64,000 bases of DNA from Gammaproteobacteria bacterium (GCA_005799745.1 SYFY01000120.1:24126-88125), one strand, 5' to 3'. Shown: positions 5,751-63,773, numbered from the stretch's first letter. Translations and numbers: made by a program. Notes: a model not told the origin generated them from the sequence alone.

Positions 5751-6713
5751 ATGGAGCTCAAGGAACACTCCGTGCAGGTGCGCGGCGTGAAGCTGCGTGT
5801 CTTTGATACCGGCGACGTTGGGGAGAGCACCTCGAGACCTGTGCTCTTGTTCCTCCATGGCATGCGCGACGCCGCAGCGAGTCTCTTTTCCATCGCCGCC
5901 CCTTTCGCAGATCGTTACCGAATCGTTCTACCAGAACTGCGCGGCCACGGTAGCAGCGACTACCCCAGTGCCTATTAGATGAAGAACTTCATCTACGACC
6001 TGTGGCGCGTACAGAACGATCACGTGGGGCGGCCTGCGGTCATCGTCGGCCACAGCCTTGGAGGTCAGATCGCATCTCGCTACGCAGCGGTGTTTCCAGA
6101 GACCATTGTGGGGCTGGTTTTGGTCGAAGGGCTTGGACCACCTGCCTTCCCGGAACCCGCGGACGAACACGCCTGGCTCAAGGGTTATCGCGAACGTCTG
6201 CTGACCCGCTTTGCAGATTCAGCGCCTGGCAGAGGCCTTGGCAACGTCGAATTCGCCACTTCTCGCCTGCTTGCCAACAACCCACGTCTCGATGCGGCAC
6301 GAGCACCACAGATTGCAGCTGCGCTCACCCGTCGCGATGACCAGGACAAGCTCGTCTGGGCTTTTGATTCTCACGCCGGCGCTGCGTTTGTACGCGCGGA
6401 CCGCGATGAGGGGGAATGATTTTGGAGTGCGGTGCCCTGCCCTACGCTCGTCATTAGTGGAGACCTCGCCCATGAATACTGGCGTGGCCAGTTCGGCAAT
6501 CTGCCGGGCTTTGACGGGCGATACAGGGAAGGTGAAATGGAACAACGGGCCGCCGTCTTTCCGCGCGGCGAACATTGCGCCTTTCACCATTCCGGGCATA
6601 TGGTGCACTACAACGAGCCGGAACGACTGATCGAGGAGATCGGTGCGTTCCTTGATAGATATACTTTTGCCTGCACGCCAACGGGCACACTGAGGGGAGT
6701 GCATCATGAGTGA
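5751..6713 (+). pseudogene. alpha/beta hydrolase interrupted by in-frame TAG (5976..5978) and TGA (6417..6419)
   Basis: Track ORFs 5751..5978, 5979..6419 and 6432..6713 share one frame (all starts are 0 mod 3). Joined, they give a roughly 320-codon alpha/beta hydrolase: LLFLHGMRD, RGHGSSD, nucleophile elbow GHSLGG, CPTLVISGD, catalytic His region SGHMVHYNEP. Confidence 0.75.
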
Positions 6714-36446: not shown

Positions 36447-37769
36447 AAGGGCGCGTCCTCGTTCTTGAAGAGCCAACCGATGCCTTTTTCCGGCCGCAAG
36501 CAGTCCAGCGCTGAGTTTCTGGCCCTCACGCAACAAGAGGTAGAAGCCGATTTCTGAGAAATTTTGAAGTCCGTTCCCGGTGCCCGCTTCACGATCGGCT
36601 TTGGTTATACCGGTGAAAAGCTCCAGCTCAATCTCACGGGAGATGATTCACATGCGCTGTCCCTTGCCGCTGAAAAGGTGATGGAAGAACTGCGTCAGAT
36701 CGAAGGCGTCGGTAACGTCATCTCGTCGGCGAGCTTGTTACGTCCAGAGATCATCATTCGTCCCGACTTTGCTGCAGCTGCAGAACTCGGTGTAAACGCC
36801 GCTGCCATCGGTGAAACCGTACAGGTCGCGACCGCTGGTGATTACACCGCTGCACTCGCGAAGCTCAATCTGCCGGAGCGTCAGGTCGATATCCGCGTGC
36901 AACTCCCGCTCGATTCACGCAAAGACCTCGAGACCATTCGCCAACTTCGAGTCCCTGGCAACAACGGACTTGTACCACTGTCTGCGGTCGCCGATGTCAG
37001 CGTTGGCTCCGGCCCTGCTCAAATCAAGCGATATGAACGCGCTCGTAACATTCAGATCGACGCAGAACTCGGCAAGATCCAGCTGGGCGACCTCTCCAAG
37101 ATGGTGGATACCCTGCCCGCTCTGCAGCATCTGCCCGCAGGCGTGCGCAAAGTGGAGGTGGGTGATGCGGAAAGGATGAAGGAAATGATGGGTGCGTTCG
37201 GCATGGCCATGGTCACCGGCATCCTTTGTGTGTTCATGGTGCTGGTGCTGCTGTTCAAGGACTTCATACAGCCAGTCACCATCCTTGCGGCGCTGCCGCT
37301 CTCAGTGGGTGGCGCGGTGATTGCGCTGCTCATTGCCAATGAACCTTTCAGCATGCCGGCGGTCATTGGCCTCGTAATGCTGATGGGCATCACTACCAAA
37401 AACTCCATCTTGCTGGTGGAGTACGCCGTAGTGGCGATGCGTGAACACGGCATGAACCTGCACGACGCCATGATTGATGCCTGCGGCAAACGCGCGCTCC
37501 CCATCATCATGACAACGCTCGCCATGGTGGCGGGCATGATGCCTGTAGCACTCGGACTAGATGCAGACACGAGCTTCCGCTCGCCCCTCGGGATTGTCGT
37601 TATCGGCGGCCTCATCACCTCAACGGTGCTGAGTCTGGTGGTGGTACCGGTGGTGTTCGAATACGTGGTGGCGCTGGAGAAGGTGCTCCGGCGATGGCTC
37701 CGGATTCCGGATCGCAAACACTACCCTGAGCTGGATGAGCCGATGCCCCCGGAGCCTGTGCGGGCCTGA
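36447..37769 (+). pseudogene. 5'-truncated RND efflux permease remnant (C-terminal ~40 percent only) with in-frame TGA 36555..36557
   Basis: Track ORF 36564..37769 begins in the periplasmic porter region (IPGARF-type: KSVPGARFTIGFG...LNLTGDD) and runs through the last five TM helices (GLVMLMGITTKNSILLVEYA...). The same frame is open upstream to the TAA at 36444 (..SAEFLALTQQEVEADF*EIL). About 650 N-terminal codons are absent. Confidence 0.8.
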
Positions 37770-38842: not shown

Positions 38843-38919
38843 TGGCGCGCCCAAAGGGACTCGAACCCCTAACCCCCAGGTTCGAAGCCTGGTGCTCTAT
38901 CCAATTGAGCTATGGACGC
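38843..38919 (-). tRNA. tRNA-Arg (anticodon TCG), CCA encoded
   Basis: The reverse strand reads GCGTCCA TA GCTC AATTGGATA GAGC A CCAGG CTTCGAA CCTGG GGGTT AGGGG TTCGAGT CCCTT TGGGCGC G CCA. Cloverleaf folded by hand, 77 nt. Confidence 0.9.
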
Positions 38920-52403: not shown

Positions 52404-53395
52404 GCACTCTTGACCTAGGTGGACCGATCAACATCCAGGTGGTGCTGGCCCTGACGCTGCCCAGTATCAGTGAGGATGAGATCACCCGGATTCAGACCGC
52501 TGCGCCCCCCGGTTCGACTGTTAGCGTGGTCAACAGCGTGCGTGAGGCTATGGCGCAGGCCGCGAACGTCGATGTTATTCTCGGCATCATTCCTGAGGTC
52601 CTGTTCAACGCTGCGCCAAAACTCAAGTGGGTGCACGCCATCGCCTCGGGTATGGATTCCATGCTGTACCCGAAGATGCGTGATTCCAGCGTTCTGCTCA
52701 GCGGCGAAAAGGGTCTCGTGGGCGGACATCTGGCTGACACCGGTTTTGGTCTGCTGCTGGCTCTGACGCGACAAATCAAAACCGCCCTTGCGCTCGGACC
52801 GGATGGATGGAACCACCGACCGGCGATGCGGATGAAAGAAGTCGAGCTCGAAGGTATGACGATGGGCGTCATCGGCTTTGGCGGTACAGGTCGCGCAATG
52901 GCACGACGCGCGGTCGCCTTCGGCATGAACGTCATCGCGGTCGACGCCATGGCGGTCAATCCATCGGACGGGGTGGAAGACGTGTGGACCATGGACCGTT
53001 TGCCCGAATTGCTGGCGGCCGCGGATGTCGTGGCTATCGGTGCCCCGTTGACCCCGGAAACCCGAAACCTGATCGACGACGCTGCATTTTCCCGGATGAA
53101 GCGCGGTGCGCTGATCGTGAATGTCACGCGCGGCGAGATCATCGATGGCGATGCATTGGTGGCGGCGCTGCGCGACGGACGCTGCGGTGGCGCGGCCCTC
53201 GACGTCGCACCGATCGAGCCACTGCCGGCGGATCATCCGCTATGGTCCTTCGAGAATGTTGTCATGACGCCGCATACCGCGGGCGCCAGTCAGCTGCGCG
53301 GGCCACGCAATATCGCGCGCTTCTGCGAGAACCTGCGCCGTGCACAGGCTGGTGAGCACCTGGTGGGACTGGTGGATAAACAATCCGGGTTCTAG
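52400..53395 (+). CDS. D-isomer-specific 2-hydroxyacid dehydrogenase
   Basis: GVIGFGGTGRAMARRA, VNVTRGEIID, LDVAPIEPLP...MTPHTAG. ATGA overlap with the upstream gene. Confidence 0.9.
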   Translation: MSTLDLGGPINIQVVLALTLPSISEDEITRIQTAAPPGSTVSVVNSVREAMAQAANVDVILGIIPEVLFNAAPKLKWVHAIASGMDSMLYPKMRDSSVLLSGEKGLVGGHLADTGFGLLLALTRQIKTALALGPDGWNHRPAMRMKEVELEGMTMGVIGFGGTGRAMARRAVAFGMNVIAVDAMAVNPSDGVEDVWTMDRLPELLAAADVVAIGAPLTPETRNLIDDAAFSRMKRGALIVNVTRGEIIDGDALVAALRDGRCGGAALDVAPIEPLPADHPLWSFENVVMTPHTAGASQLRGPRNIARFCENLRRAQAGEHLVGLVDKQSGF

Positions 53396-53883
53396 GCGGA
53401 GCTGTGCAAAATCGCCTGCGGCCGGGTTCGTATCAGCCCAACCGTCTTGGCGTTCGGATCAAGCCCAGACCACACATCGCCAATCACCACGAAGCCAAAA
53501 GCGCGACCAGCGCAGTCAACAACACCGAAACCCAGGGCGTTCGATAACACGCGCTGATGAAAGCCAGCTGTGCGGGTAACTCTTTGTCGCCCGCCACGGC
53601 ATAGAGGCCGCGCTTTACCTCCTGCTGGTAACCGGTGTCAGTCATGAGTTCCGCCCTGCTACTTGTGTGTTCCGACCCTTCAACTTGCACCACCATCGGC
53701 CAGACCCACCTGATTTCGCGACCCCGAAAAATAAATCTCTCATCCATGCATCCAGATTGAACTCTCGCACGTAATAGCTACATGCACAGGAACGATTCTG
53801 TGCAACAGCGGACAGATCGGCGCTTGTGGCGTTGATTAAAAAGTGCCCCGCACGAACCTATATGTCTGTTACGAGGAATAACC

Positions 53884-55527
53884 ATGATTGCAAGATTGCC
53901 TGCTCCACCACTGTCCCTGTCCTGCCTGCTTCTCGCCGGCACCGCCATGGCTTCAAGCCACCGGGAAGCGCCATTCATTACCAAGTTTCCGCAAGTGGAC
54001 GCTACTGACTTCTATCTGTTCAGCAGTTATGAACCCGGTCGCGATGGGTATGTTTCACTGATCGCCAACTATCAGCCGATACAGGCCGCCTATGGCGGGC
54101 CGAACTACTTTCCGCTGGACAGTGAAGCGCTCTACGCGATCCGGATCGACAACGATGGAGACAGTGTTGAAGACCTAACGTTCCAGTTCCGCTTCCGGGA
54201 CGTGCAGCCCTCGGGCAGTGCAGTCAAGCTGAACGTCAACGGCACTGAGATCTCCTCGGTACTCCGCAACATCGGTCCAGTCACCGCTGAGCGCGCGCCG
54301 GGTCTCAGCTTTCTTGAGACGTTTACGGTGAAGGTAGTCCGTGAGGGTCAGTCCACGAGCGGCGAGGATGTCATCAATACAGCTACTGGCTCCGTGACCT
54401 TCAATAAGCCCTTCGACTACGCCGGCACCAAGACCTTTGGTGGTGCAGGAAATTATGAAACCTATGCGAACACCTTCATTCAGGAGGCAAACATCCCTGG
54501 CTGTTCGATGCCGGCTAAAATCTTTGTTGGTCAGCGGAACGAAGCCTTCAAGATCAGCGTCGGTGAGGTGTTTGATCTGGTCAATCTCGTGCCAATAGAA
54601 GGGGACAGTGCTCCCGGTGCTCGCGATGGCCGGGGTTTTCCAGGTGGTATCACGCAGGACCCTCTGAGGAACAATCTTGCGCGGGCGAACGTCACGTCAA
54701 TCGCGATGGAAGCACACAAGAGCTGCCTCACGTCACGCTCGGAGCCTGTTATCGGCGCGTGGACCACCGCCAGCCTGCGTCAGGTTTCGGTGCTCAATCC
54801 CCGCGCAACGTTTCAGCGACCGGAGGTGACCGGCGGAGCCTTTGTTCAGGTATCACGTCTGTCGACCCCGCTGGTGAATGAACTGGTGATCGGTTTCGAT
54901 CAGAAAGACCGTTTCAACGGCAGCAGGCCGGCAGATGATGGGCAATTTCTGCCGTTTGTGACCAACCCCGGATCGCCGCTCATTCTCAACCTGCTCTTTC
55001 GGGATGCAGTAAACACAACGCTCAACGCCAATATCCCGAACCTTGCACCGAAGAACTTTCCTCGTAACGATCTCGTCACCACATTCCTCACCGGTTTTCC
55101 AGGCCTTAACAAGCCTGCCAACGTAGTACCCGGCGAAATGTTGCGTCTGAACACGGCAGTCGCCCCAAGGCTTCGTGCAGCACAGAGTCCGTTTGGTGTT
55201 GCCGCTGGTGACATCGCCGGATTTCCCAACGGACGACGACCCGGGGACGATGTGGTGGACATCGCGCTGCGGGTGGTCATGGTGTTATCCGCTACCGATT
55301 GGTGCTGGCGGAAGTCCTGTAGCACTTGGACTGTGTCATGTGGTCGGGTCGCACGCGTGAAGGCGCCGCAATCTTCGACGAAGTCGCAGCGCTCGATACG
55401 CAAGGCAACGCCTGGGACACCGAAGTACTCGGCTGGTATCCGTACGTCGAGTCATTGTCGATTCGATCCGTTGCGCATGGGTGGATGGGGCGGATCGCAG
55501 AAGCGCAGGACTTTGTCGAACGGCTGA
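53884..55527 (+). CDS. DUF4331 domain protein, apparently 3'-truncated (family similarity ends near 55280)
   Basis: Signal peptide, then SSHREAPFITKFPQVDATDFYLFSSYEP...IRIDNDGDSVEDL...GFPNGRRPGDDVVDIALRVV. The remaining ~80 codons are Cys/Arg/Trp-rich and overlap another gene's frame. Confidence 0.7.
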   Translation: MIARLPAPPLSLSCLLLAGTAMASSHREAPFITKFPQVDATDFYLFSSYEPGRDGYVSLIANYQPIQAAYGGPNYFPLDSEALYAIRIDNDGDSVEDLTFQFRFRDVQPSGSAVKLNVNGTEISSVLRNIGPVTAERAPGLSFLETFTVKVVREGQSTSGEDVINTATGSVTFNKPFDYAGTKTFGGAGNYETYANTFIQEANIPGCSMPAKIFVGQRNEAFKISVGEVFDLVNLVPIEGDSAPGARDGRGFPGGITQDPLRNNLARANVTSIAMEAHKSCLTSRSEPVIGAWTTASLRQVSVLNPRATFQRPEVTGGAFVQVSRLSTPLVNELVIGFDQKDRFNGSRPADDGQFLPFVTNPGSPLILNLLFRDAVNTTLNANIPNLAPKNFPRNDLVTTFLTGFPGLNKPANVVPGEMLRLNTAVAPRLRAAQSPFGVAAGDIAGFPNGRRPGDDVVDIALRVVMVLSATDWCWRKSCSTWTVSCGRVARVKAPQSSTKSQRSIRKATPGTPKYSAGIRTSSHCRFDPLRMGGWGGSQKRRTLSNG

Positions 55528-56185
55528 CGGCGCGCATTCGTCGTCCACGCCAGGATACGGATCTGAGTTCTGCCGCATGCGACCGCTGGTTCCTGTGTTT
55601 TACGCTCGGCGACGCGGAACGCGCGATGGACTACGCCCATGAATCGCTGCGACTGGCCGAACGATTCGGCTCGGAGAGCAAGATCGTCTACGCACTCATG
55701 ACGTGTGGCCTGACCAGCAGTCTCGGGCTGCGCTGGCAGGAGGGTGTGGGCTATCTGCAACGAGCCCGACAACTGATCGCCGGCAGCGGCGCCGGCGCCG
55801 AGTGGCGCATCTTCATCGACCCCGTCCTCGCGCTCTGCCTCGCCGGATCGGGTGATCACGAACAGAGCGTTGCGCTTGCCCGGGAGAGCTTTGCACGTAC
55901 CCCCGAGAATCTGCACATGCAAGTCTGTATCCCTCTCACTCGCGCGTGGCGGGTGGACTCTCCTGTGAAGCAGAGATCGACGCCGTCATCGACGCCATGC
56001 TCCATGCCATGCAGAAGGCTGATACCTTCGGCTGGTTACCCCTCATCCTGCTCGAACGAGCGGGACTTTCGCGGCTGCGTGGCGACATGGAAGGCATGCG
56101 ACGGGATCTTGCGGAGGACAGGCAGCGGCTCGTGGAGATGAACGTGACGGGATGGGAGGACTACGCGAGGTCGATCGAAGGCTGA
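55272..56185 (+). pseudogene. TPR-type C-terminal remnant of a large regulatory (STAND/cyclase-like) protein
   Basis: Frame of track ORF 55326..56141 (AIFDEVAALDT...AEAQDFVERL...AMDYAHESLRLAERFG...GYLQRARQLIA), with in-frame TAG 55320..55322. Shifts near 55.9 kb into track ORF 55946..56185 (LLERAGLSRLRGDMEGMRRDLAEDRQRLVEMNVTGWEDYARSI). Confidence 0.5.
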
Positions 56186-56253
56186 CTCAAAACTTCAGAG
56201 GACAGGCAATCAACCAACAGGTATCCGAGACCCTGCTTCCTGAAGGCTTCCGT

Positions 56254-56640
56254 CTAGCATTGGCAGGCCAGCGTTTCGCGATCACCCATCGCGGCAAAGT
56301 GATCGCTGATTTCCTTTCCAGCGATACCAGTCAGAGTCTGGACGCCAAGGCGGTAATCGAAAGCTCCCAGAAATTCCTTCTTGCCAATCCGGTCACGGTA
56401 CAGCGGAACGGAATCGTCAGGAGGGAGCGCTCGATCATACTGATCGCCTTCACAGGAAAATGTCCGTGGAAGGCTCTTCCCCGTGAAAGGTATCGAATCG
56501 ACCTGTGCTTTTTCGAACGTGAGAATCAGCTCCAGGATGCCGAGCATGATGCCGGGTTGTTGCTGGAAAGAACTTTTCGGGGGCATAGGCAAAGGACTTG
56601 GATCGATCCAGCCGTAGTTCCCGCGGACACTGCCATCCAT
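56254..56640 (-). CDS. unassigned ORF, possibly part of a longer decayed gene
   Basis: Natural-looking composition, unlike its R-rich + strand shadow (56152..56691). The same frame stays recognisably coding upstream across TAG 56680..56682 and TAA 56896..56898. Confidence 0.3.
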   Translation of the reverse strand: MDGSVRGNYGWIDPSPLPMPPKSSFQQQPGIMLGILELILTFEKAQVDSIPFTGKSLPRTFSCEGDQYDRALPPDDSVPLYRDRIGKKEFLGAFDYRLGVQTLTGIAGKEISDHFAAMGDRETLACQC

Positions 56641-57122
56641 TCGGGTCGAGATTCGCGGAGACCCAGCGCAGAGGCAGCACTAAGCCCCTGATACGAACTC
56701 GACGCTGCCGCCGACAGGAAAACGCCCTTCGGCACACTCCATCATGGCGATATCTTCGTGTTTGCTCAGGATGAAGGCATCGGCGCCTGGTTCATAACCT
56801 TCGCCTGGAATGCGATGCACCGGTGCCTCGGCATGGAGGTTGTTGCAGGCTTCGCACCAATGTCCCTGTACGCCCGGCGAGAAGAGATCGACGCGTTAGC
56901 GGGCATGCGGACTTCGCATGGCGCCGGCGTTGATGCATCGGTAACGCCAGTGGGGTCCGGTGCTACTCTGCAGACAATTCTCGGATCGCCGTGGACGATC
57001 GACGTACGTGGTCCCTACACTACGGGCAGGAGTCCAATTGCGTGGTAGCGACGGGATCAGGGTGTGTAGCACTCACCGTCATCGACTGCGACAGAATCAC
57101 GATGTTGATCGGGAGGAGAATC

Positions 57123-57347
57123 ATGCGTCTAAGGCACGCCTACAGCGGCTACATCTACGAATCTACCGACGACGCTCACGTCAAGGTGAGTGATCCAAAG
57201 ACCGGACGATCCGGGCTCTTTACGCCCGACGCCAAGTGGGTATCGGGTGACCTCACCTATGCCGACCACCACATGATCGGCCACATTGGTGGCAAAACGG
57301 CCGAAGGCGCGACGTCCCTCGGTGCGTTCTCTCGTCGTCGCGGGTGA
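57123..57347 (+). CDS. small hypothetical protein (74 aa)
   Basis: The ATG at 57123 follows a strong Shine-Dalgarno GGGAGGAG (57111..57118). Its stop overlaps the ferredoxin GTG start (GTGA). Confidence 0.6.
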   Translation: MRLRHAYSGYIYESTDDAHVKVSDPKTGRSGLFTPDAKWVSGDLTYADHHMIGHIGGKTAEGATSLGAFSRRRG

Positions 57348-57664
57348 ACATCGAAGTCGAACCCGCGCGGATAACATTCGATATCCATGCGGATGAAACC
57401 ATCATTCAGGCGGCGTGGCGTAACGGCTACACTTGGCCCACCATCTGTGGCGGTCAGGGCACCTGCAAAACCTGTGTATTCCAGATCCTTGAAGGCTTCG
57501 AGCACCTCTCCCCTGTTGAAGCCTGGGAAGATACCGGATTGCGCAGCTTAGCTGATTCGTTACCCAACAAAGGACAGGGCTACCGACTTGCCTGTCAGGC
57601 CAAGGTTCATGCTGATATTCGTCTCAGAAAAATCGGAGTGAGGAAACAACATGGCAACAGTTGA
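57344..57664 (+). CDS. plant-type [2Fe-2S] ferredoxin
   Basis: ICGGQGTCKTCVFQI...YRLACQAKV cysteine pattern. Confidence 0.85.
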   Translation: MNIEVEPARITFDIHADETIIQAAWRNGYTWPTICGGQGTCKTCVFQILEGFEHLSPVEAWEDTGLRSLADSLPNKGQGYRLACQAKVHADIRLRKIGVRKQHGNS

Positions 57665-59108
57665 TACCAAGAAAACCAAGGGTCCCGCCAAGACAGGGCC
57701 TGTCAAAACGGCACAGGCTAGGGCGAACAGAGCACTGCCTCCCGGTTACGCACGATCCAGAGGCAAACAAGTCCAGGAACTGCTCGATGAAGAAACCGTC
57801 GAAGTACCCTGGCAACTGCGCCACTCTGAGTTCACGTATCTCGGCTCCGCACCCCTTTCGCGTGAGCACTACATCTCCAAAGAATGGGCGGAACGTGAAA
57901 TTGAGAAGTTGTGGTCCAAGGTCTGGCAACTCGCCTGCTTCGAGCAGGACATTCCCGAGATCGGTGACCACATCGTTTATGACATCGTGGACTGGTCGTT
58001 CATCATCGTTCGTACCACCAACAACGAAGTTAAGGCGTTTTACAATTCCTGCTTGCATCGTGGCAGACAGTTGTGTGAGAACCAGTCGGAATCGGCCAAC
58101 TCACCAGAGTTTCGTTGCCCCTTCCACGGCTTGTCCTGGAACCTTGACGGTTCTCTGAAACAAATCCCGCCATCCATCGAATTCGACTTCCCGCATGTGG
58201 ACAAGAAGAAGTTCGGCTTGCCAGAAGTTCGATGTGAAATCTGGGATGGTCTCGTCTTCATCAACATCGACGACAACGCCGAACCGCTGCTCGACTTCCT
58301 CGGAGACATCACCAAACACTTCGAACGCTGGCCTTTTGCCACGCGCTGGAAAGCGACACACACCGCCAAGGTGATCGACTGCAACTGGAAGATTGCGCAG
58401 GAAGCCTTCATGGAAGCCTTCCATGTCCTGGCGACGCATCCGCAGATGAGCATCGGTCTCCTGGGTGGTGATGGTTCCAACACCGAATACAACATCTATG
58501 ACGACGGTAATGCGAACTGGAGCCGAATGACCATGGCGCCGCCGATGCCCAACCCCAATCTCCCCTATGAACTCACCGAGCGGGAACTGATTGAAGAGAT
58601 GTTCTATCGCGGCGAGTCGGTCAGTGAAATGGGTGTGCAGAAGATGTCGGGCAGCATCAACGATCTGCCGGATAACATCACCACAAGAAAACTGTTAGCG
58701 GATGCGGCGCGTGCACGTGGCACACCCGGTTTTGTCGGGCTGCCACCCACCGATATGGAGCTGACCTCCGCCATTCAGTACCACATCTTCCCCAATATCT
58801 CGCCGTGGCCCGGTCCGATCTTCTATCGCTACCGTCCCTACGGCCATGATCCTGACAAGTGCATCTTCGAGATCATGATGATGGTGAGTCTGCCGAAGGA
58901 CCAGCCGCGGCCTCCCGCAGCGAAGATCAAGTGGTTAGGCCCTGACGAACAGTTCGGCAGCATCTTCAATCAGGACGTTGAAAACGTAGCGCGAGTACAG
59001 CGCGGCATGAAAGCCGCCAAGCCACCGGGTCATCTCACCCTCACCAATTACCAGGACATCAAGGTGCGTTGGCATCACCGCTTGTTGGAGAAATGGTTGA
59101 ACGCCTGA
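57651..59108 (+). CDS. Rieske [2Fe-2S] non-heme-iron oxygenase, alpha-subunit type
   Basis: Rieske motif CLHRGRQLC...FRCPFHGLSW. Mononuclear-iron region EAFMEAFHVLATHP. Overlaps the ferredoxin gene by 14 nt. Confidence 0.9.
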   Translation: MATVDTKKTKGPAKTGPVKTAQARANRALPPGYARSRGKQVQELLDEETVEVPWQLRHSEFTYLGSAPLSREHYISKEWAEREIEKLWSKVWQLACFEQDIPEIGDHIVYDIVDWSFIIVRTTNNEVKAFYNSCLHRGRQLCENQSESANSPEFRCPFHGLSWNLDGSLKQIPPSIEFDFPHVDKKKFGLPEVRCEIWDGLVFINIDDNAEPLLDFLGDITKHFERWPFATRWKATHTAKVIDCNWKIAQEAFMEAFHVLATHPQMSIGLLGGDGSNTEYNIYDDGNANWSRMTMAPPMPNPNLPYELTERELIEEMFYRGESVSEMGVQKMSGSINDLPDNITTRKLLADAARARGTPGFVGLPPTDMELTSAIQYHIFPNISPWPGPIFYRYRPYGHDPDKCIFEIMMMVSLPKDQPRPPAAKIKWLGPDEQFGSIFNQDVENVARVQRGMKAAKPPGHLTLTNYQDIKVRWHHRLLEKWLNA

Positions 59109-59119
59109 GGCTTTTCGTA

Positions 59120-59149
59120 AAGGAAGGTCTGATTAACCAGACCTTCCTT
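59120..59149 (+). terminator. 12-bp stem hairpin after the Rieske oxygenase gene
   Basis: AAGGAAGGTCTG attaac CAGACCTTCCTT. Only a weak T-tract follows. Confidence 0.5.
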
Positions 59150-59378
59150 CCTCATCCGGGGATGCACCGACGTTCTCACTGTGTATATCGCAGAGAAGTT
59201 GCGAGGAGCGCTTGATTCCACGAGGGCACACCACGCCAAACCCCCTACTGCGATGCCTTCTCCAGCAACCGATGACACCCGCCAAGATATGCAAATATGT
59301 CAATAAAAACAAAATCATGGGTTGCCCATATCGGCGAGTATGGGTATGGCCTTTACCACTGATGTGAATGATTGAGGC

Positions 59379-59633
59379 GTGACTGTAAAGACAACCCTCG
59401 ATATCAAAGATGAGTTGTTGGTGAGTGCGAAAAAACTGGCGGAGAGCACCGGGCATACTCGACGGTCGGTGGTCGAAGAGGGATTGCGACGGGTTCTATC
59501 GAATCGGCTCAACCTCCCCTGTTTTGTTCTAGACGACTGCAGCGTCGGCACGACAGGTGGTGTTGACCCCCGCGAATCGTTGAGCTGGCAACATCTTCGT
59601 AAGGAAATCTATGGAGAGCCCGTTCGTCGATGA
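59379..59633 (+). CDS. vapB: type II antitoxin, VapB-like
   Basis: MTVKTTLDIKDELLVSAKKLAESTGHTRRSVVEEGLRRVL. ATGA overlap with the PIN-domain frame. Confidence 0.7.
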   Translation: MTVKTTLDIKDELLVSAKKLAESTGHTRRSVVEEGLRRVLSNRLNLPCFVLDDCSVGTTGGVDPRESLSWQHLRKEIYGEPVRR

Positions 59634-60145
59634 TCACTGTCGACTCCAACGTACTAGTCTACGCGCATCGCCGGGGATCCCGTTTCCACGAGCGCTGGCA
59701 CGACGTCGTCCACGCGCTCGCTGAAGGACGTGAACGCTAGGCAATACCCTCGCCGTGCCTTCACGAATTTTTCAGAGTGGTGACCCACCCACGCATTTGG
59801 AAACGTGAAGCCAGTTAGTCGGTTGCTGCCGGCAAACAGATCCACGCATGGATGAGCTCGCCAACACTAATGATGGTGAACGAGAACGACATGTTCGCAG
59901 AGGTCCTGCTGCCCATGATCCAGCAGCCGCGAGTGCGTGGACCCATTGTCCATGACGCTCGAATCGCCGCGTTGTGCCTGGAACATGGTGTCGGCACCGT
60001 CGATGGCGTGCACGAACTCCTCTTCAACACCGCCGAGGATCAATCGGAACACCAGGACCATTCAATGACCAACATTCCGATGCTGGTGGAGTTTCGAAAA
60101 CTCCTGAACGACTGGGAGGCGAGTATCGCAGCCGCACCTTCATAA
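59630..60145 (+). pseudogene. vapC: VapC (PIN-domain) toxin gene with two in-frame TAG codons (59738..59740, 59816..59818)
   Basis: One frame reads MITVDSNVLVYAHRRGSRFHERWHDVVHALAEGRER*AIPSPCLHEFFRVVTHPRIWKREAS*SVAAGKQIHAWMSSP...IVHDARIAALCLEHGV. The 3' part is also divergent, so the end is uncertain. Confidence 0.7.
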
Positions 60146-60155
60146 ACGGACAGCA

Positions 60156-60834
60156 CTACGCCATCCGCGACCTCGCCACGGCCTTGATCTCTTCGATAAA
60201 GGCTGTGGCCCCCATCGCGCCCGTGACTTGTCCCGCAAGCTCGGGACCTGCAAGTTCCGGCCGACCAGAACCGTACGGTGGCTCCGGCGCGTACTCGAGG
60301 AAGAGCTCAACCATACGTCCGTAGTCATCGCCTGCGAGTGTGCCGATCAGCGATAGCCCGACATCAATGCCCGCTGTCACCCCACCACCCGACATACGAT
60401 TGCGATCGATCACCACACGCTGATTGCAAGGCGTCGCACCAAACTCTGCGAGCTGATCCCGCACCGCCCAATACGACGAGGCGCGATAACCCTTGAGCAG
60501 TCCTGCCGCACCGAGGATCAACGATCCCATTCAGACACTGACTAACCATTTTGTTCTGGCGCCGCGATCAGCAAAAAAAGGCCATGGCGGCATCGTCTTT
60601 CATCACATCGAGCGTCGCTTGGGCGGCACCACCAATAATCAGAATGTCAGGGTCTGCAAACGCGTTCGCGAACGAATGGGACGCCACCAGTTGCAAGCCA
60701 TTGTCAGAACGCACGGGACCTGCGTCTTTCCACACAGTCTGAATCTCAGCGCCCGGCAAAAAGCCGAGTGCCTGCATCGGACCAACCAGGTCGAGGGCTG
60801 TCATGCCGGGAAAAAGTACTGCAATGATTTTCAT
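60156..60834 (-). pseudogene. DJ-1/PfpI family gene with a homopolymer frameshift and TGA at the nucleophile-Cys position
   Basis: Track ORF 60568..60834 (MKIIAVLFPGMTALDLVGP...ILIIGG) and 60156..60530 (GSLILGAAGLLKGYRASSYW...SGGGVTAGIDV...EYAPEPPY) join via the A7/T7 run 60573..60579. The intervening frame reads ADRGARTKWLVSV*MGS, with TGA 60531..60533 where the family has Cys. Confidence 0.75.
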
Positions 60835-60866
60835 TTGAGTTGACTCCGTTGATTAGAAAAAGAGGT

Positions 60867-62264
60867 TCAGCGCCCCGGTGGGATATTCGCGTTCATTCTG
60901 AAGAGGTTATCCGGATCGTATTTCGCCTTGATGTTTCGCAGCCGCGCATATTTCGCCCCGAATGAAGCACGCACCGCTTCGGGTTTGTCATCCAGCGCCG
61001 CATGGTTGAGATAAGTCGATCCATTGAGGTGACCTTCCATCGCACTCCACAGCTCTTTCAACCAACTGATGTGGTGTGCACTCTCGGACGGCTCTGCCCA
61101 TTGGCCGATGACGTCGATGTCCCATTGAGGCTTACGTACACCGAAGGCCATCGCCGCTGGATCCACCCGGCTGATCGCCCCGTGCAGATAGAACATCAAT
61201 AGTGCGCTCATCGGTGAACTGAATCGGCCGGCGCCGTCGACCATCACATCAATCAGCGCATCCGACAACTGTTCGGTAAACGCGGACCGCCAATAACGTT
61301 GCAGTCCATGCACCGCGTTGGGCTCATCCAGCTGCACCTGACGTTGGCCGTACGACATCGCGGTCACCGTGTCGGCAACGGGTCGTCCAAACGCTCTCAC
61401 TGGCGCCATCACCTTCTGACCTTCGGCTATCGGACCGTTGTAACCGACCATCAAACCCAGGAGCGGCATGCCGTCGGGCGACGTCAATAAGCCGCAGTTG
61501 ATTTCCGCGGCGTCTGGCAACGTTGGACAGACATCACGATAGAAACGCAGTACCTCTTTCGCTGCCGCAAGGGGGTGCAACACGAGACCACCCAACACTT
61601 CGCCTACCGCGTGCAATTGATACTCGAACTCAGTCACGACCCCAAAGTTCCCGCCACCGCCACGAATGGCCAAGAAGAGATCCACGTATTCGGTAGAGCT
61701 CGCCGTTCGGATTTCACCGTCAGCGGTGACGACGCGGGCGCCAATGAGGTTATCGACCGTTGCACCATACAAACCGCTCAACCAACCGATGCCACCACCG
61801 AGGGTCAATCCTCCAATGCCTGTATTGGAGACAGTGCCTCCCGTCGTCGCGAGCCCGTGGACTTGTGTGGCGTTGTCAAACTCGTTCCACAACGCGCCCC
61901 CTTCGGCGCGAGCGGTGCGGCGGATTGGATCAACGCTTACGGCTCGCATCCGGGTGAGGTCAATCACCAGACCACCATCATTGACGCCGTAACCCGCCGC
62001 GCTATGACCGCCACCGCGTACCGAGGTAACCAATGAATGTTCGCGAGCGAAGGTGACGGCCTACCGAACATCCGCGGCACAGGTGCAACGAACAATCAAA
62101 CCTGGGCGACGATCCACGTTGCCGTTCCAGACTCTACGTGCGGAAGCGTAGTCGGCATGTGTCGGAGTAATCAGCTGGCCTTTGAGCTGTCGGCGCAATG
62201 TCGGTACGGCGGAGTCGCCGACGAGACGATGTCCACCGTCGCGAGATGTCAGATTCATCATCAA
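60867..62264 (-). pseudogene. FAD-linked (BBE/PCMH-type) oxidase gene with one in-frame TAG (62061..62063)
   Basis: Track ORFs 62061..62264 (...YASARRVWNGNVDRRPGLIVRCTCAADVR*) and 60867..62033 (..VTSVRGGGHSAAGYGV...) share one frame, 10 codons apart. C-terminal ...YDPDNLFRMNANI is typical of the family. Confidence 0.75.
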
Positions 62265-62405
62265 CCTGTACAGGCGGCTTCAAGCCGCGAGGCATTCAAA
62301 GCTAACACAACCCCCACAAAGGGCTCAGCGGTAAGGACGAGACCGCTGTAAGCTGCACAACATTACTCCTCGAACTCTCCAAGCGCCTGAGGCGCCAAAT
62401 CTTCC

Positions 62406-63773
62406 ATGTTGTTTTCCGAACTGAGCCTGAGCGCCGAGCTCGCCCAAGGTATTGCCGACGCCGAGTTTATCGAAATGACGGCGGTGCAAACTGCCTGCGT
62501 CCCGACCATCTTGTCCGGAGGCGACGTCATCGCCCAGGCACATACCGGCAGCGGTAAAACCGTGGCCTTGGCCTTGGGGCTTCTGGCAGCGCTGGATCGC
62601 ACCAAAGACACTGTGCAGGGCCTTGTTTTATGTCCGACCCGTGAACTCGCGGATCAGGTCAGCCGGGAAATCCGTCGCCTCGCCCATGCCATCCCCAACG
62701 TGAAAGTGTTGACCTTGTGTGGCGGCGTACCTTTGCGCCCCCAACTGGTGTCGTTATCGCAGCTACCCCACATCGTGGTCGGTACACCGGGACGTATTCA
62801 GGACCTCATCGAGCGTCAGGCCCTGCCCCTCAAAACCGTGAAGGTTTTGGTGCTCGACGAAGTGGATCGCATGCTCGACATGGGTTTCGCCGAGATCATC
62901 GAAACGGTGGTCAACGTGATACCGAAGCAGCGCCAGACCCTGCTCTTCTCCGCCACCATTCCTCCGGATATCCGCACCATCAGTCGCCGCTTGCAGCGGG
63001 ACCCACTCGATGTGTGCATCGAAGGTGAAGACACGCGGCCGCTCATCGATCAACGTTTTTTTAGCGTCGAAGTTGAACAGAAATTTCCCGCGTTGCGGGC
63101 GCTGTTACTCGAATTCAAGCCGGAGTCGGCGGTGGTGTTTTGCAACACCCGCGAAGCTGTTCGGGGTGTCGCCGCAGAACTTCATCGGCAGGGGTTCGCC
63201 GTGCTGTCATTGCACGGCGAGCTCGATCAACGGGAGCGCGAGGAGATGCTGGTGCGATTCGCGAATCGAAGTTGCAATGTGTTGGTCGCCTCCGATGTGG
63301 CTGCGCGGGGATTGGACATCGCCGATCTCGCCATGGTGATCAACTACGACCTTGCGAATGACGCCGATACCCACCTACACCGCATCGGCCGAACGGGGCG
63401 TGCGGGACGAAGTGGTCATGCGTTGAGCCTCTGTTCGAGTGCTGAGTCTGGTCGGCTACGCGCGATTGCCGACGTCATCAAGTCGCCGTTTCAATGGGGA
63501 CAACTCACAACGCCTTCCGGTCTTCCAACGCCTGCACCGTTCGTCACCCTGGTGATTGATGCGGGTCGTCAGGACAAACTCCGCCCTGGTGATGTGCTCG
63601 GCGCACTCACGGGCACCACCGGTCTTAAAGCCGCGGCCATCGGCAAGATCGACGTTTTTGCATCTCGCACCTATGTGGCGATCGAACGTAAAGCGGTGGA
63701 GAAGGCACTGAAGGGTTTACGCGCTGGCAAAATCAAAGGTAGAACCTTCCGTGTACGTGAGCTTGAAATCTGA
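62406..63773 (+). CDS. dbpA: ATP-dependent RNA helicase DbpA
   Basis: Q-motif/motif [32 protein letters not shown], plus the C-terminal DbpA RNA-binding domain ([15 protein letters not shown]...IGKIDVF). Confidence 0.85.

Follow-up and report, generated by a model that had tools for sequence, protein, structure and literature searches.

The stretch between positions 53396 and 62264 of a 64,000-nucleotide (nt) window, assigned to Gammaproteobacteria bacterium (GCA_005799745.1, SYFY01000120.1:24126-88125), is a block in which most genes are dead. When its genes were compared with homologues, Pfam and the PDB, disabling lesions were found in six of its ten gene units. We consider this block to be, probably, a plastic and non-essential stretch where dispensable and often redundant genes have been killed one by one and have not yet been deleted. 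The region is real and rich in pseudogenes but unremarkable, and is not a special kind of element. Four genes are intact: an antitoxin gene, vapB, and a unit of three overlapping genes (the trio) for a 74-amino-acid (aa) protein, a ferredoxin and a Rieske oxygenase. A reading made from the DNA sequence alone (the sequence-only reading) had already described most genes in the block as dead, and Pfam, PDB and homologue comparisons place every item it listed where it had put it. The ten gene units are:

53884-55527, plus strand: DUF4331 gene, 3'-truncated (Pfam PF14224, E = 2.6e-121, residues 24-469)
~55291-56185, plus strand: remnant of a Guanylate_cyc + AAA_16 + TPR regulator (homologues P0121-P0142)
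56503-56952, minus strand: cytochrome P450 remnant, 450 nt left of ~1317 nt (~50 P450 matches)
57123-57347, plus strand: gene for a 74-aa conserved protein, intact, first gene of the trio (dN/dS 0.05)
57344-57664, plus strand: plant-type [2Fe-2S] ferredoxin (Fer2), intact (Pfam PF00111, E = 2.7e-11; dN/dS 0.09)
57651-59108, plus strand: Rieske non-haem-iron oxygenase alpha subunit, 485 aa, intact (Rieske + Ring_hydroxyl_A; dN/dS 0.04)
59379-59633, plus strand: vapB-like antitoxin, 84 aa, intact (weak Pfam VapB_antitoxin match; ATGA overlap onto vapC)
59630-60145, plus strand: vapC (PIN) pseudogene (VapC43, 7vwo, E = 8.6e-11; Pfam PIN on read-through, E = 6.9e-5)
60156-60834, minus strand: DJ-1/PfpI (isonitrile-hydratase-like) pseudogene (PDB 3ewn, E = 4.2e-54; InhA 3non, E = 2.6e-46)
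60867-62264, minus strand: EncM-like flavin adenine dinucleotide (FAD) oxidase pseudogene, FAD_binding_4 + BBE (PDB EncM 6fyg, E = 1.7e-111, residues 24-463)

The lesions are of several kinds and are spread over six unrelated genes. They include at least two large deletions, several small indels (one in a homopolymer) and at least five single-base nonsense changes. Small lesions occur in the pseudogenes of the block at a density of 1.5-1.7 per kb.

The two leftmost genes have been fused. The DUF4331 gene has a signal-peptide-like N-terminus, and its match to PF14224 stops at profile position 388 of 421 (residue 469, ~55290). Past that point its open reading frame (ORF) consists of ~80 junk codons that run out of frame through the neighbouring remnant. 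This remnant is the C-terminal ~290 codons of a regulator that has lost ~750 codons, and P0121-P0142 align with it end to end at 45-68% identity. In one of these homologues (P0142) AAA_16 is contiguous with the part matching the remnant, and at another locus (L171) an adjacent upstream ORF carries Guanylate_cyc and AAA_16. These alignments indicate that one deletion took the 3' end of the DUF4331 gene, any DNA that lay between, and two thirds of the regulator, fusing both genes. A TAG codon lies near the deletion junction (55320-55322), and a frameshift at ~55945-55955 leaves the remnant with a net 7 nt missing relative to locus L172.

The minus-strand frame that follows is a gutted cytochrome P450 gene. 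An exhaustive search of 1.84 billion representatives with its central segment (56257-56679) returned the query alone. The P450 identity came from the segments flanking this one, for which a composite word-indexed search found ~50 cytochromes P450 (P0144-P0192) at up to 78% identity. Alignment by tblastn against P0144 and P0153 resolves three pieces. The first (56700-56952) corresponds to residues 8-88 and has an in-frame TAA at 56898; a ~760-nt deletion separates it from the second (56603-56686), which corresponds to residues 343-370 in a different frame. The third (56503-56612) holds the last ~37 residues and is preceded by a +1 frameshift. A 96-nt deletion between two LDR motifs (paralogue residues 370-402) takes out the haem-ligand loop, and with it the haem-binding cysteine motif, FxxGxxxCxG. 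A TAG also stands at 56682 in the minus-strand frame. The same contig has an intact paralogue within a catabolic cluster at a distance of ~290 kb (P0153, 438 aa, 70-75% identical); in blastn against this copy (L173) the remnant shows 77% and 84% identity.

The vapC gene retains the layout of a toxin–antitoxin locus, with the PIN toxin gene directly downstream of a small antitoxin gene and the two joined by an ATGA overlap (59630-59633). It is interrupted by TAG at 59738-59740 and at 59816-59818. The read-through product aligns with VapC43 over residues 1-121 and homology is gone after ~121, so the C-terminus is disrupted too. The uninterrupted toxin frame that a VapBC system requires is therefore lacking. 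The VapB product scores 21.4 bits against VapB_antitoxin, under the cut-off of 23.4. The sequence-only reading had taken this antitoxin to be live. Its ORF is indeed intact, but this is not evidence of selection and carries no weight, because at the local lesion density a 255-nt target stays free of lesions with a probability of ~0.65.

The last two pseudogenes, DJ-1/PfpI and the FAD oxidase, have suffered less. In the DJ-1/PfpI gene an extra T in a T7 run (60573-60579) causes a +1 frameshift upstream of a TGA (60531-60533) that falls exactly at the nucleophile cysteine. The protein would read SV*MGS in place of SVCSGS, and thus lacks the nucleophile of the SVC(S/T)GS elbow. The FAD oxidase has a sole lesion, a TAG at 62061-62063 (codon 67) in a variable alignment column, and is otherwise full length, aligning over 440 residues. 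These two genes stand in tandem on the same strand, 32 nt apart, in an operon-like arrangement. The pairing is not conserved: among ~80 metagenomic loci with related oxidases, the nearest of which are 48-49% identical, a DJ-1-like gene is nearby in one only (L134).

These comparisons uphold the lesions that the sequence-only reading had named and sharpen two of them. Profile coverage of 1-388 of 421 agrees with a 3'-truncated DUF4331 gene, and the 5'-truncated, amber-interrupted and frameshifted TPR remnant can now be assigned as the tail of a guanylate-cyclase/AAA_16/TPR regulator. The unassigned minus-strand frame with TAA (56898) and TAG (56682) is the P450 remnant. The two amber codons of vapC beside an intact vapB, the frameshift plus TGA in DJ-1/PfpI and the single amber codon of the FAD oxidase were all found as described. 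The description of the block as being in late decay fits only in part. The P450 and the regulator are deep remnants, but the FAD oxidase, DJ-1, vapC and DUF4331 genes are almost full length. The vapC, DJ-1/PfpI and FAD oxidase genes are young pseudogenes, since they are nearly full length.

Outside the gene units lie three further features:

53396-53883: unrecognised DNA, 488 nt between the stop of a 2-hydroxyacid dehydrogenase gene and the DUF4331 start
56186-56502: DNA without a homologue, where the open minus-strand frame runs on past the P450 homology
59120-59149: perfect palindrome (stem 12 bp, loop 6 nt), 12 nt past the Rieske stop

For the read-through frame of the first, Pfam gave no match and the composite protein search no homologue; this DNA may be a long gap between genes or a remnant decayed past recognition. 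The second likewise gave no homologue and no Pfam or PDB match.

The damage is clustered. In the rest of the window 2 of ~47 gene units are broken, compared with 6 of 10 in the block (Fisher p = 1.4e-4). Given five pseudogenes in the other ~96 kb surveyed, the Poisson probability of the block's pseudogene count is 9e-6. Long-ORF coverage of the block (0.59) is the lowest of all 9-kb stretches in the window, for which the median is 0.83. Decay is thus locally enriched ~13-fold, yet it also extends beyond the block. The ~105 kb surveyed hold at least 11 pseudogenes or remnants, roughly one gene in ten.

Such clustering could arise if the block were a horizontally acquired genomic island decaying as a unit, as the sequence-only reading had proposed. 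We regard this as unlikely. In its favour, the genes of the block are functionally unrelated accessory genes, and none is syntenic in the nearest available genomes. The GC content at third codon positions (GC3) of several broken genes (0.55-0.66) is also slightly under that of the flanking genes (0.66-0.71). However, the marks of an island are missing. No integrase, recombinase, transposase or insertion sequence occurs among the called genes and Pfam matches at 47.6-73.8 kb or in the ORFs scanned, no tRNA borders the block (the only tRNA of the window is at 38843-38919), and 52-64 kb holds no meaningful direct repeats. The GC content of the block (0.55-0.61) lies within the window range of 0.52-0.62, with no shift in composition, and its GC3 also falls within the spread seen in the remainder of the window.

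Nor does the missing synteny count for much. A scan of genome contigs with DbpA, the product of a flanking gene, gave 80 loci that share only the dbpA-helicase pair, the best at 72% identity. The nearest genomes, at 61-72% DbpA identity, are metagenome-assembled genomes (MAGs) labelled Gammaproteobacteria, Steroidobacter or Nevskiaceae. In relatives this distant a lack of synteny is uninformative. When metagenomes were scanned with the FAD oxidase, the relatives found were at <=49% identity with no other block gene co-occurring, and the nearest homologues of the pseudogenes are at 48-78% aa identity. The lesion ages are also very different, and pseudogenes continue past the intact dbpA/helicase pair and occur elsewhere. 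The flanking dbpA is intact, as had been proposed, but decay resumes beyond it and a second helicase. The block is a local hot spot of a genome-wide tendency and not a discrete element, because the same genome has remnants elsewhere.

Two of these remnants lie elsewhere inside the window. An alpha/beta hydrolase gene at 5751-6713 (plus strand) is split by two in-frame stops into three same-frame ORFs. At 36564-37769 (plus strand) a 401-aa ORF matches the AcrB/RND profile over 669-1018 of 1021 and is the 5'-truncated remainder of a transporter gene that once had ~1000 codons. Beyond the window end, contig stretch L001 17376-19145 (window-equivalent 65026-66795) holds a split alpha/beta hydrolase (140 + 132 aa) and a luciferase-like monooxygenase of which only profile positions 1-78 of 314 and a scrap of the C-terminus are left. 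This hydrolase and the luciferase-like remnant sit just past the intact dbpA and second helicase genes. On the same contig, ~290 kb off, L173 16203-17852 (minus strand) carries a 549-aa ORF in which a fragment of a TonB-receptor barrel (profile 131-280 of 436) is fused in frame to a complete short-chain dehydrogenase/reductase. The tRNA-Arg(TCG) at 38843-38919 abuts a 291-aa ORF (to 39787) that has a SoFic-like C-terminal domain only, with no Fic domain found. A Fic gene in decay or a small site of insertion could account for this.

The trio stands apart from its neighbours. Its genes overlap by 4 nt (the stop of the 74-aa gene on the GTG start of the ferredoxin gene, GTGA) and then by 14 nt (ferredoxin/Rieske). 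The Rieske protein matches PF00355 (E = 2e-13) and PF00848 (E = 2.2e-14) and its translation shows the motifs CLHRG...CPFHG and EAFHVLATHP. The ferredoxin has its cysteine ligand motif, so that the cluster-ligand motifs are kept in the trio. The Rieske protein is 91% identical to P0001 and 81% to P0002, in an uncharacterised clade. Against the PDB and NCBIfam it matches over its N-terminal half only, at best ~105 bits against cut-offs of 670-830, and at the NCBIfam equivalog cut-off it belongs to no characterised substrate family. No beta subunit gene and no reductase gene were found among its neighbours.

The trio is conserved as a unit elsewhere. The 74-aa protein, ferredoxin and Rieske protein are 93%, 83% and 91% identical in loci L088/L089, 73%, 65% and 81% in L090, and 52%, 55% and 58% in L175, where the ferredoxin gene is inverted. 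Ratios of nonsynonymous to synonymous change (dN/dS) relative to L088 are 0.05, 0.09 and 0.04, with dS at 0.7-1.5. At the local density of small lesions a 2.0-kb unit would escape with a probability of 0.03-0.05. The trio is most likely still functional and under purifying selection, since its ORFs and ligand motifs are intact, the unit is conserved elsewhere and dN/dS is low; this evidence is of moderate weight. It agrees with the one module that the sequence-only reading had singled out as selected, a Rieske/ferredoxin trio that is intact in the window, conserved in L088, L090 and L175, and has dN/dS of 0.04-0.09.

The neighbourhoods of the trio's relatives suggest a type of substrate. In L175 the trio lies among genes for a coenzyme A (CoA) ligase, an acyl-CoA dehydrogenase, an enoyl-CoA hydratase and an E1 dehydrogenase, and in Mycolicibacillus a 43%-identical Rieske homologue adjoins Mce/MlaE transporter genes. 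Judging from these settings, the trio's likely reaction is the hydroxylation of a hydrophobic substrate of acyl or steroid type. The 74-aa protein has no Pfam or NCBIfam match. Copies of 74-83 aa lie at 57123-57347 of the window, 9016-9240 of L088, 9444-9668 of L090 and 4700-4951 of L175, always just upstream of this Rieske clade. They share the start MR(L/I)RHA(Y/F)(S/T)G(Y/F)(I/V)Y and, later, TYAD(H/F)HM. This protein may be an undescribed accessory subunit of the oxygenase. Two candidate associations around the trio were rejected. A PIN gene beside the trio in L088 is unrelated to the window's vapC. An ancestral P450–Rieske pair was also dismissed: a P450 does adjoin the Rieske homologue in Mycolicibacillus, but it shares only 25% identity with the paralogue family.

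The trio might be intact for a different reason, having been transferred recently into a region that was already dead. Its neighbours are wholly different in L088/L089, L090, L175 and the window, and similarity to L088 begins 13 nt before the first start and stops 2 nt after the last stop. This sharp boundary is uninformative, however, since non-coding flanks would not align at a dS of ~1.5. The GC3 of the trio (0.69, 0.56 and 0.69) is like that of native genes, and neither a mobility gene nor a repeat flanks it; the hairpin that follows it is one of this genome's own repeats. This palindrome (59120-59149; AAGGAAGGTCTG-ATTAAC-CAGACCTTCCTT), where depth is raised, is found again at the termini of further Logan contigs from the same run that have a similar depth. 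It looks like a repetitive extragenic palindromic (REP)-type repeat that broke the Logan assembly at that point. We therefore hold recent transfer to be quite unlikely, and preservation of the trio amid decaying neighbours to be the better account.

The lesions themselves had to be separated from errors of a metagenome contig. Contig k141_300118 (1.285 Mb) of the ENA freshwater metagenome assembly ERZ27257033 contains the window. Such a MEGAHIT-style assembly could introduce artefacts, and one lesion does sit in a homopolymer. However, ENA assembly ERZ27257035 (L087, under another accession) and the Logan assembly of SRR8894381 (L086) are 100% identical to the window over 58770/58857-64000, so that three independent assemblies from at least two datasets, one under a different ENA accession, agree completely over the right half of the block. 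Logan contigs of the main run, at ~20x word depth, span 53000-62700 and reproduce the whole block with a single, unrelated difference (55824 G>T). Three other runs of that study yielded short contigs that match the block without any difference. The lesions are not assembly artefacts, because independent assemblies and runs carry identical sequence; as far as contigs can show, they are real features of a clonal population. An artefactual origin, which the sequence-only reading had left open as a way in which it might fail, is contradicted by these data and is very improbable. The G>T difference at 55824, within the TPR remnant, is the sole mismatch between the ENA and Logan contigs built from one run; it may reflect variation in the population.

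It is extremely improbable that the interrupted genes are alive through read-through of TAG and TGA (amber suppression or pyrrolysine, and selenocysteine at the catalytic cysteine of DJ-1), even though 5-6 of the 7-8 premature stops are TAG and the DJ-1 TGA is exactly on the nucleophile cysteine, the classic selenocysteine position. Amber recoding was rejected on natural stop usage and the expected nonsense spectrum: TAG terminates 8 of 42 intact genes, and at this codon usage ~47% of one-step nonsense mutations should produce it, more than any other stop, which gives at least 5 of 6 with a probability of ~0.08. Selenocysteine was rejected as well: the RNA downstream of the DJ-1 TGA folds no better than shuffles (z = 0.14) and so has no fold like a selenocysteine insertion sequence (SECIS), no Rfam match at E <= 1 was found near it, SECIS families included, and the DJ-1 frameshift lies upstream of the TGA. 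Frameshifts and deletions are present in the same genes as well.

Piecemeal decay of a plastic stretch would then proceed as follows. The host would be a gammaproteobacterium of fresh water, uncultured, whose distant relatives include Steroidobacter/Nevskia-like MAGs. Ordinary spontaneous mutations would inactivate its accessory genes in succession, with deletion lagging behind. The events appear to be independent and of different ages, those in the P450 and regulator genes old and those in the FAD oxidase, DJ-1, vapC and DUF4331 genes young. The P450 was presumably expendable because an intact paralogue is present elsewhere in the genome. Loss of the FAD oxidase probably relaxed selection on the tandem DJ-1 gene. 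In toxin–antitoxin systems the toxin must be lost before the antitoxin. An orphan antitoxin is therefore an expected intermediate, and vapC would have been inactivated before vapB could go. The trio would stay intact as a self-sufficient functional unit under purifying selection.

Several observations weigh against this account. The DUF4331 gene retains 1.4 kb without an internal stop or frameshift, and the FAD oxidase has just one lesion in 1.4 kb; given these two genes, intactness alone is weak evidence of selection on the trio. The trio has 22 unique aa changes in the window lineage and 11 in L088 (p = 0.08), an excess that may hint at some relaxation. RNA-seq runs were searched for the trio, and none holding it was found. 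The comparison of assemblies was made on contigs and not on raw reads, which leaves room for intact alleles at minority frequency. Finally, why decay concentrates in this block is something that we infer.

In bacteria, pseudogenes are as a rule few and soon lost (PMC2916853, PMC11229322), usually by deletion (PMC2916853). If it holds, a load of about one dead gene in ten would be unusual in a gammaproteobacterium that lives free in fresh water and has many catabolic genes, and erosion across the genome could mark early reductive evolution or a recent population bottleneck. Only this overall load (~1/10 over ~105 kb) might make an examination of the whole genome worthwhile. A more ambitious pair of claims, that the block is the densest visible patch of genome-wide erosion and, separately, that the trio is an undescribed three-component oxygenase with a familyless small subunit, we put forward only tentatively and hold to be rather unlikely. 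The stretch has little significance beyond annotation, where it should be entered as six pseudogenes, an intact oxygenase operon and an orphan antitoxin and not as a string of short hypothetical ORFs. It does show, at one site, the successive stages in which genes die, from one nonsense mutation through to a gutted remnant, with a toxin dying ahead of its antitoxin and a P450 paralogue lost while its sister copy survives. The small-protein/ferredoxin/Rieske trio is a reasonable target for substrate discovery, its distant relatives lying in CoA-ligase/acyl-CoA-dehydrogenase or Mce-type lipid-uptake clusters.

The individual genes of the block can be set beside characterised systems. The FAD oxidase and DJ-1/PfpI pseudogenes align over their full length with EncM (6fyg/3w8w; E = 1.7e-111) and the isonitrile hydratase InhA (3non; E = 2.6e-46), and differ from them in that both window copies are inactivated. 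Orphan antitoxins beside degraded toxins are common, and the vapBC remnant resembles other degraded type II VapBC loci in its intact antitoxin ORF, its ATGA overlap and its nonsense-killed PIN toxin (PMC7192599). Its antitoxin differs in matching the Pfam VapB model only below threshold. With Rieske systems that have a dedicated ferredoxin (for example the phthalate, biphenyl and carnitine oxygenases of the PDB) the trio shares the Rieske CxH...CxxH and the catalytic domain with its histidine motif, and likewise has an adjacent, translationally coupled [2Fe-2S] ferredoxin. It differs from these in matching them over the N-terminal part only and far under the cut-offs, in having no beta subunit or reductase gene nearby, and in its constant companion, the 74-83-aa protein without a known family.

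The block as a whole resembles the pseudogene clusters that form under neutral decay followed by deletion in Salmonella and in reductively evolving genomes (PMC2916853, PMC6054270). In both, genes are lost by the same range of lesions: nonsense changes, frameshifts in homopolymers, and deletions, small or large, that join adjacent ORFs. Here too, old remnants lie beside nearly intact young pseudogenes, and the genes affected are dispensable or redundant. Two differences set the present case apart. The bacterium seems to live free in fresh water, with a broad range of catabolic genes, and not to be restricted to a host, and six casualties within 9 kb are unusually dense.

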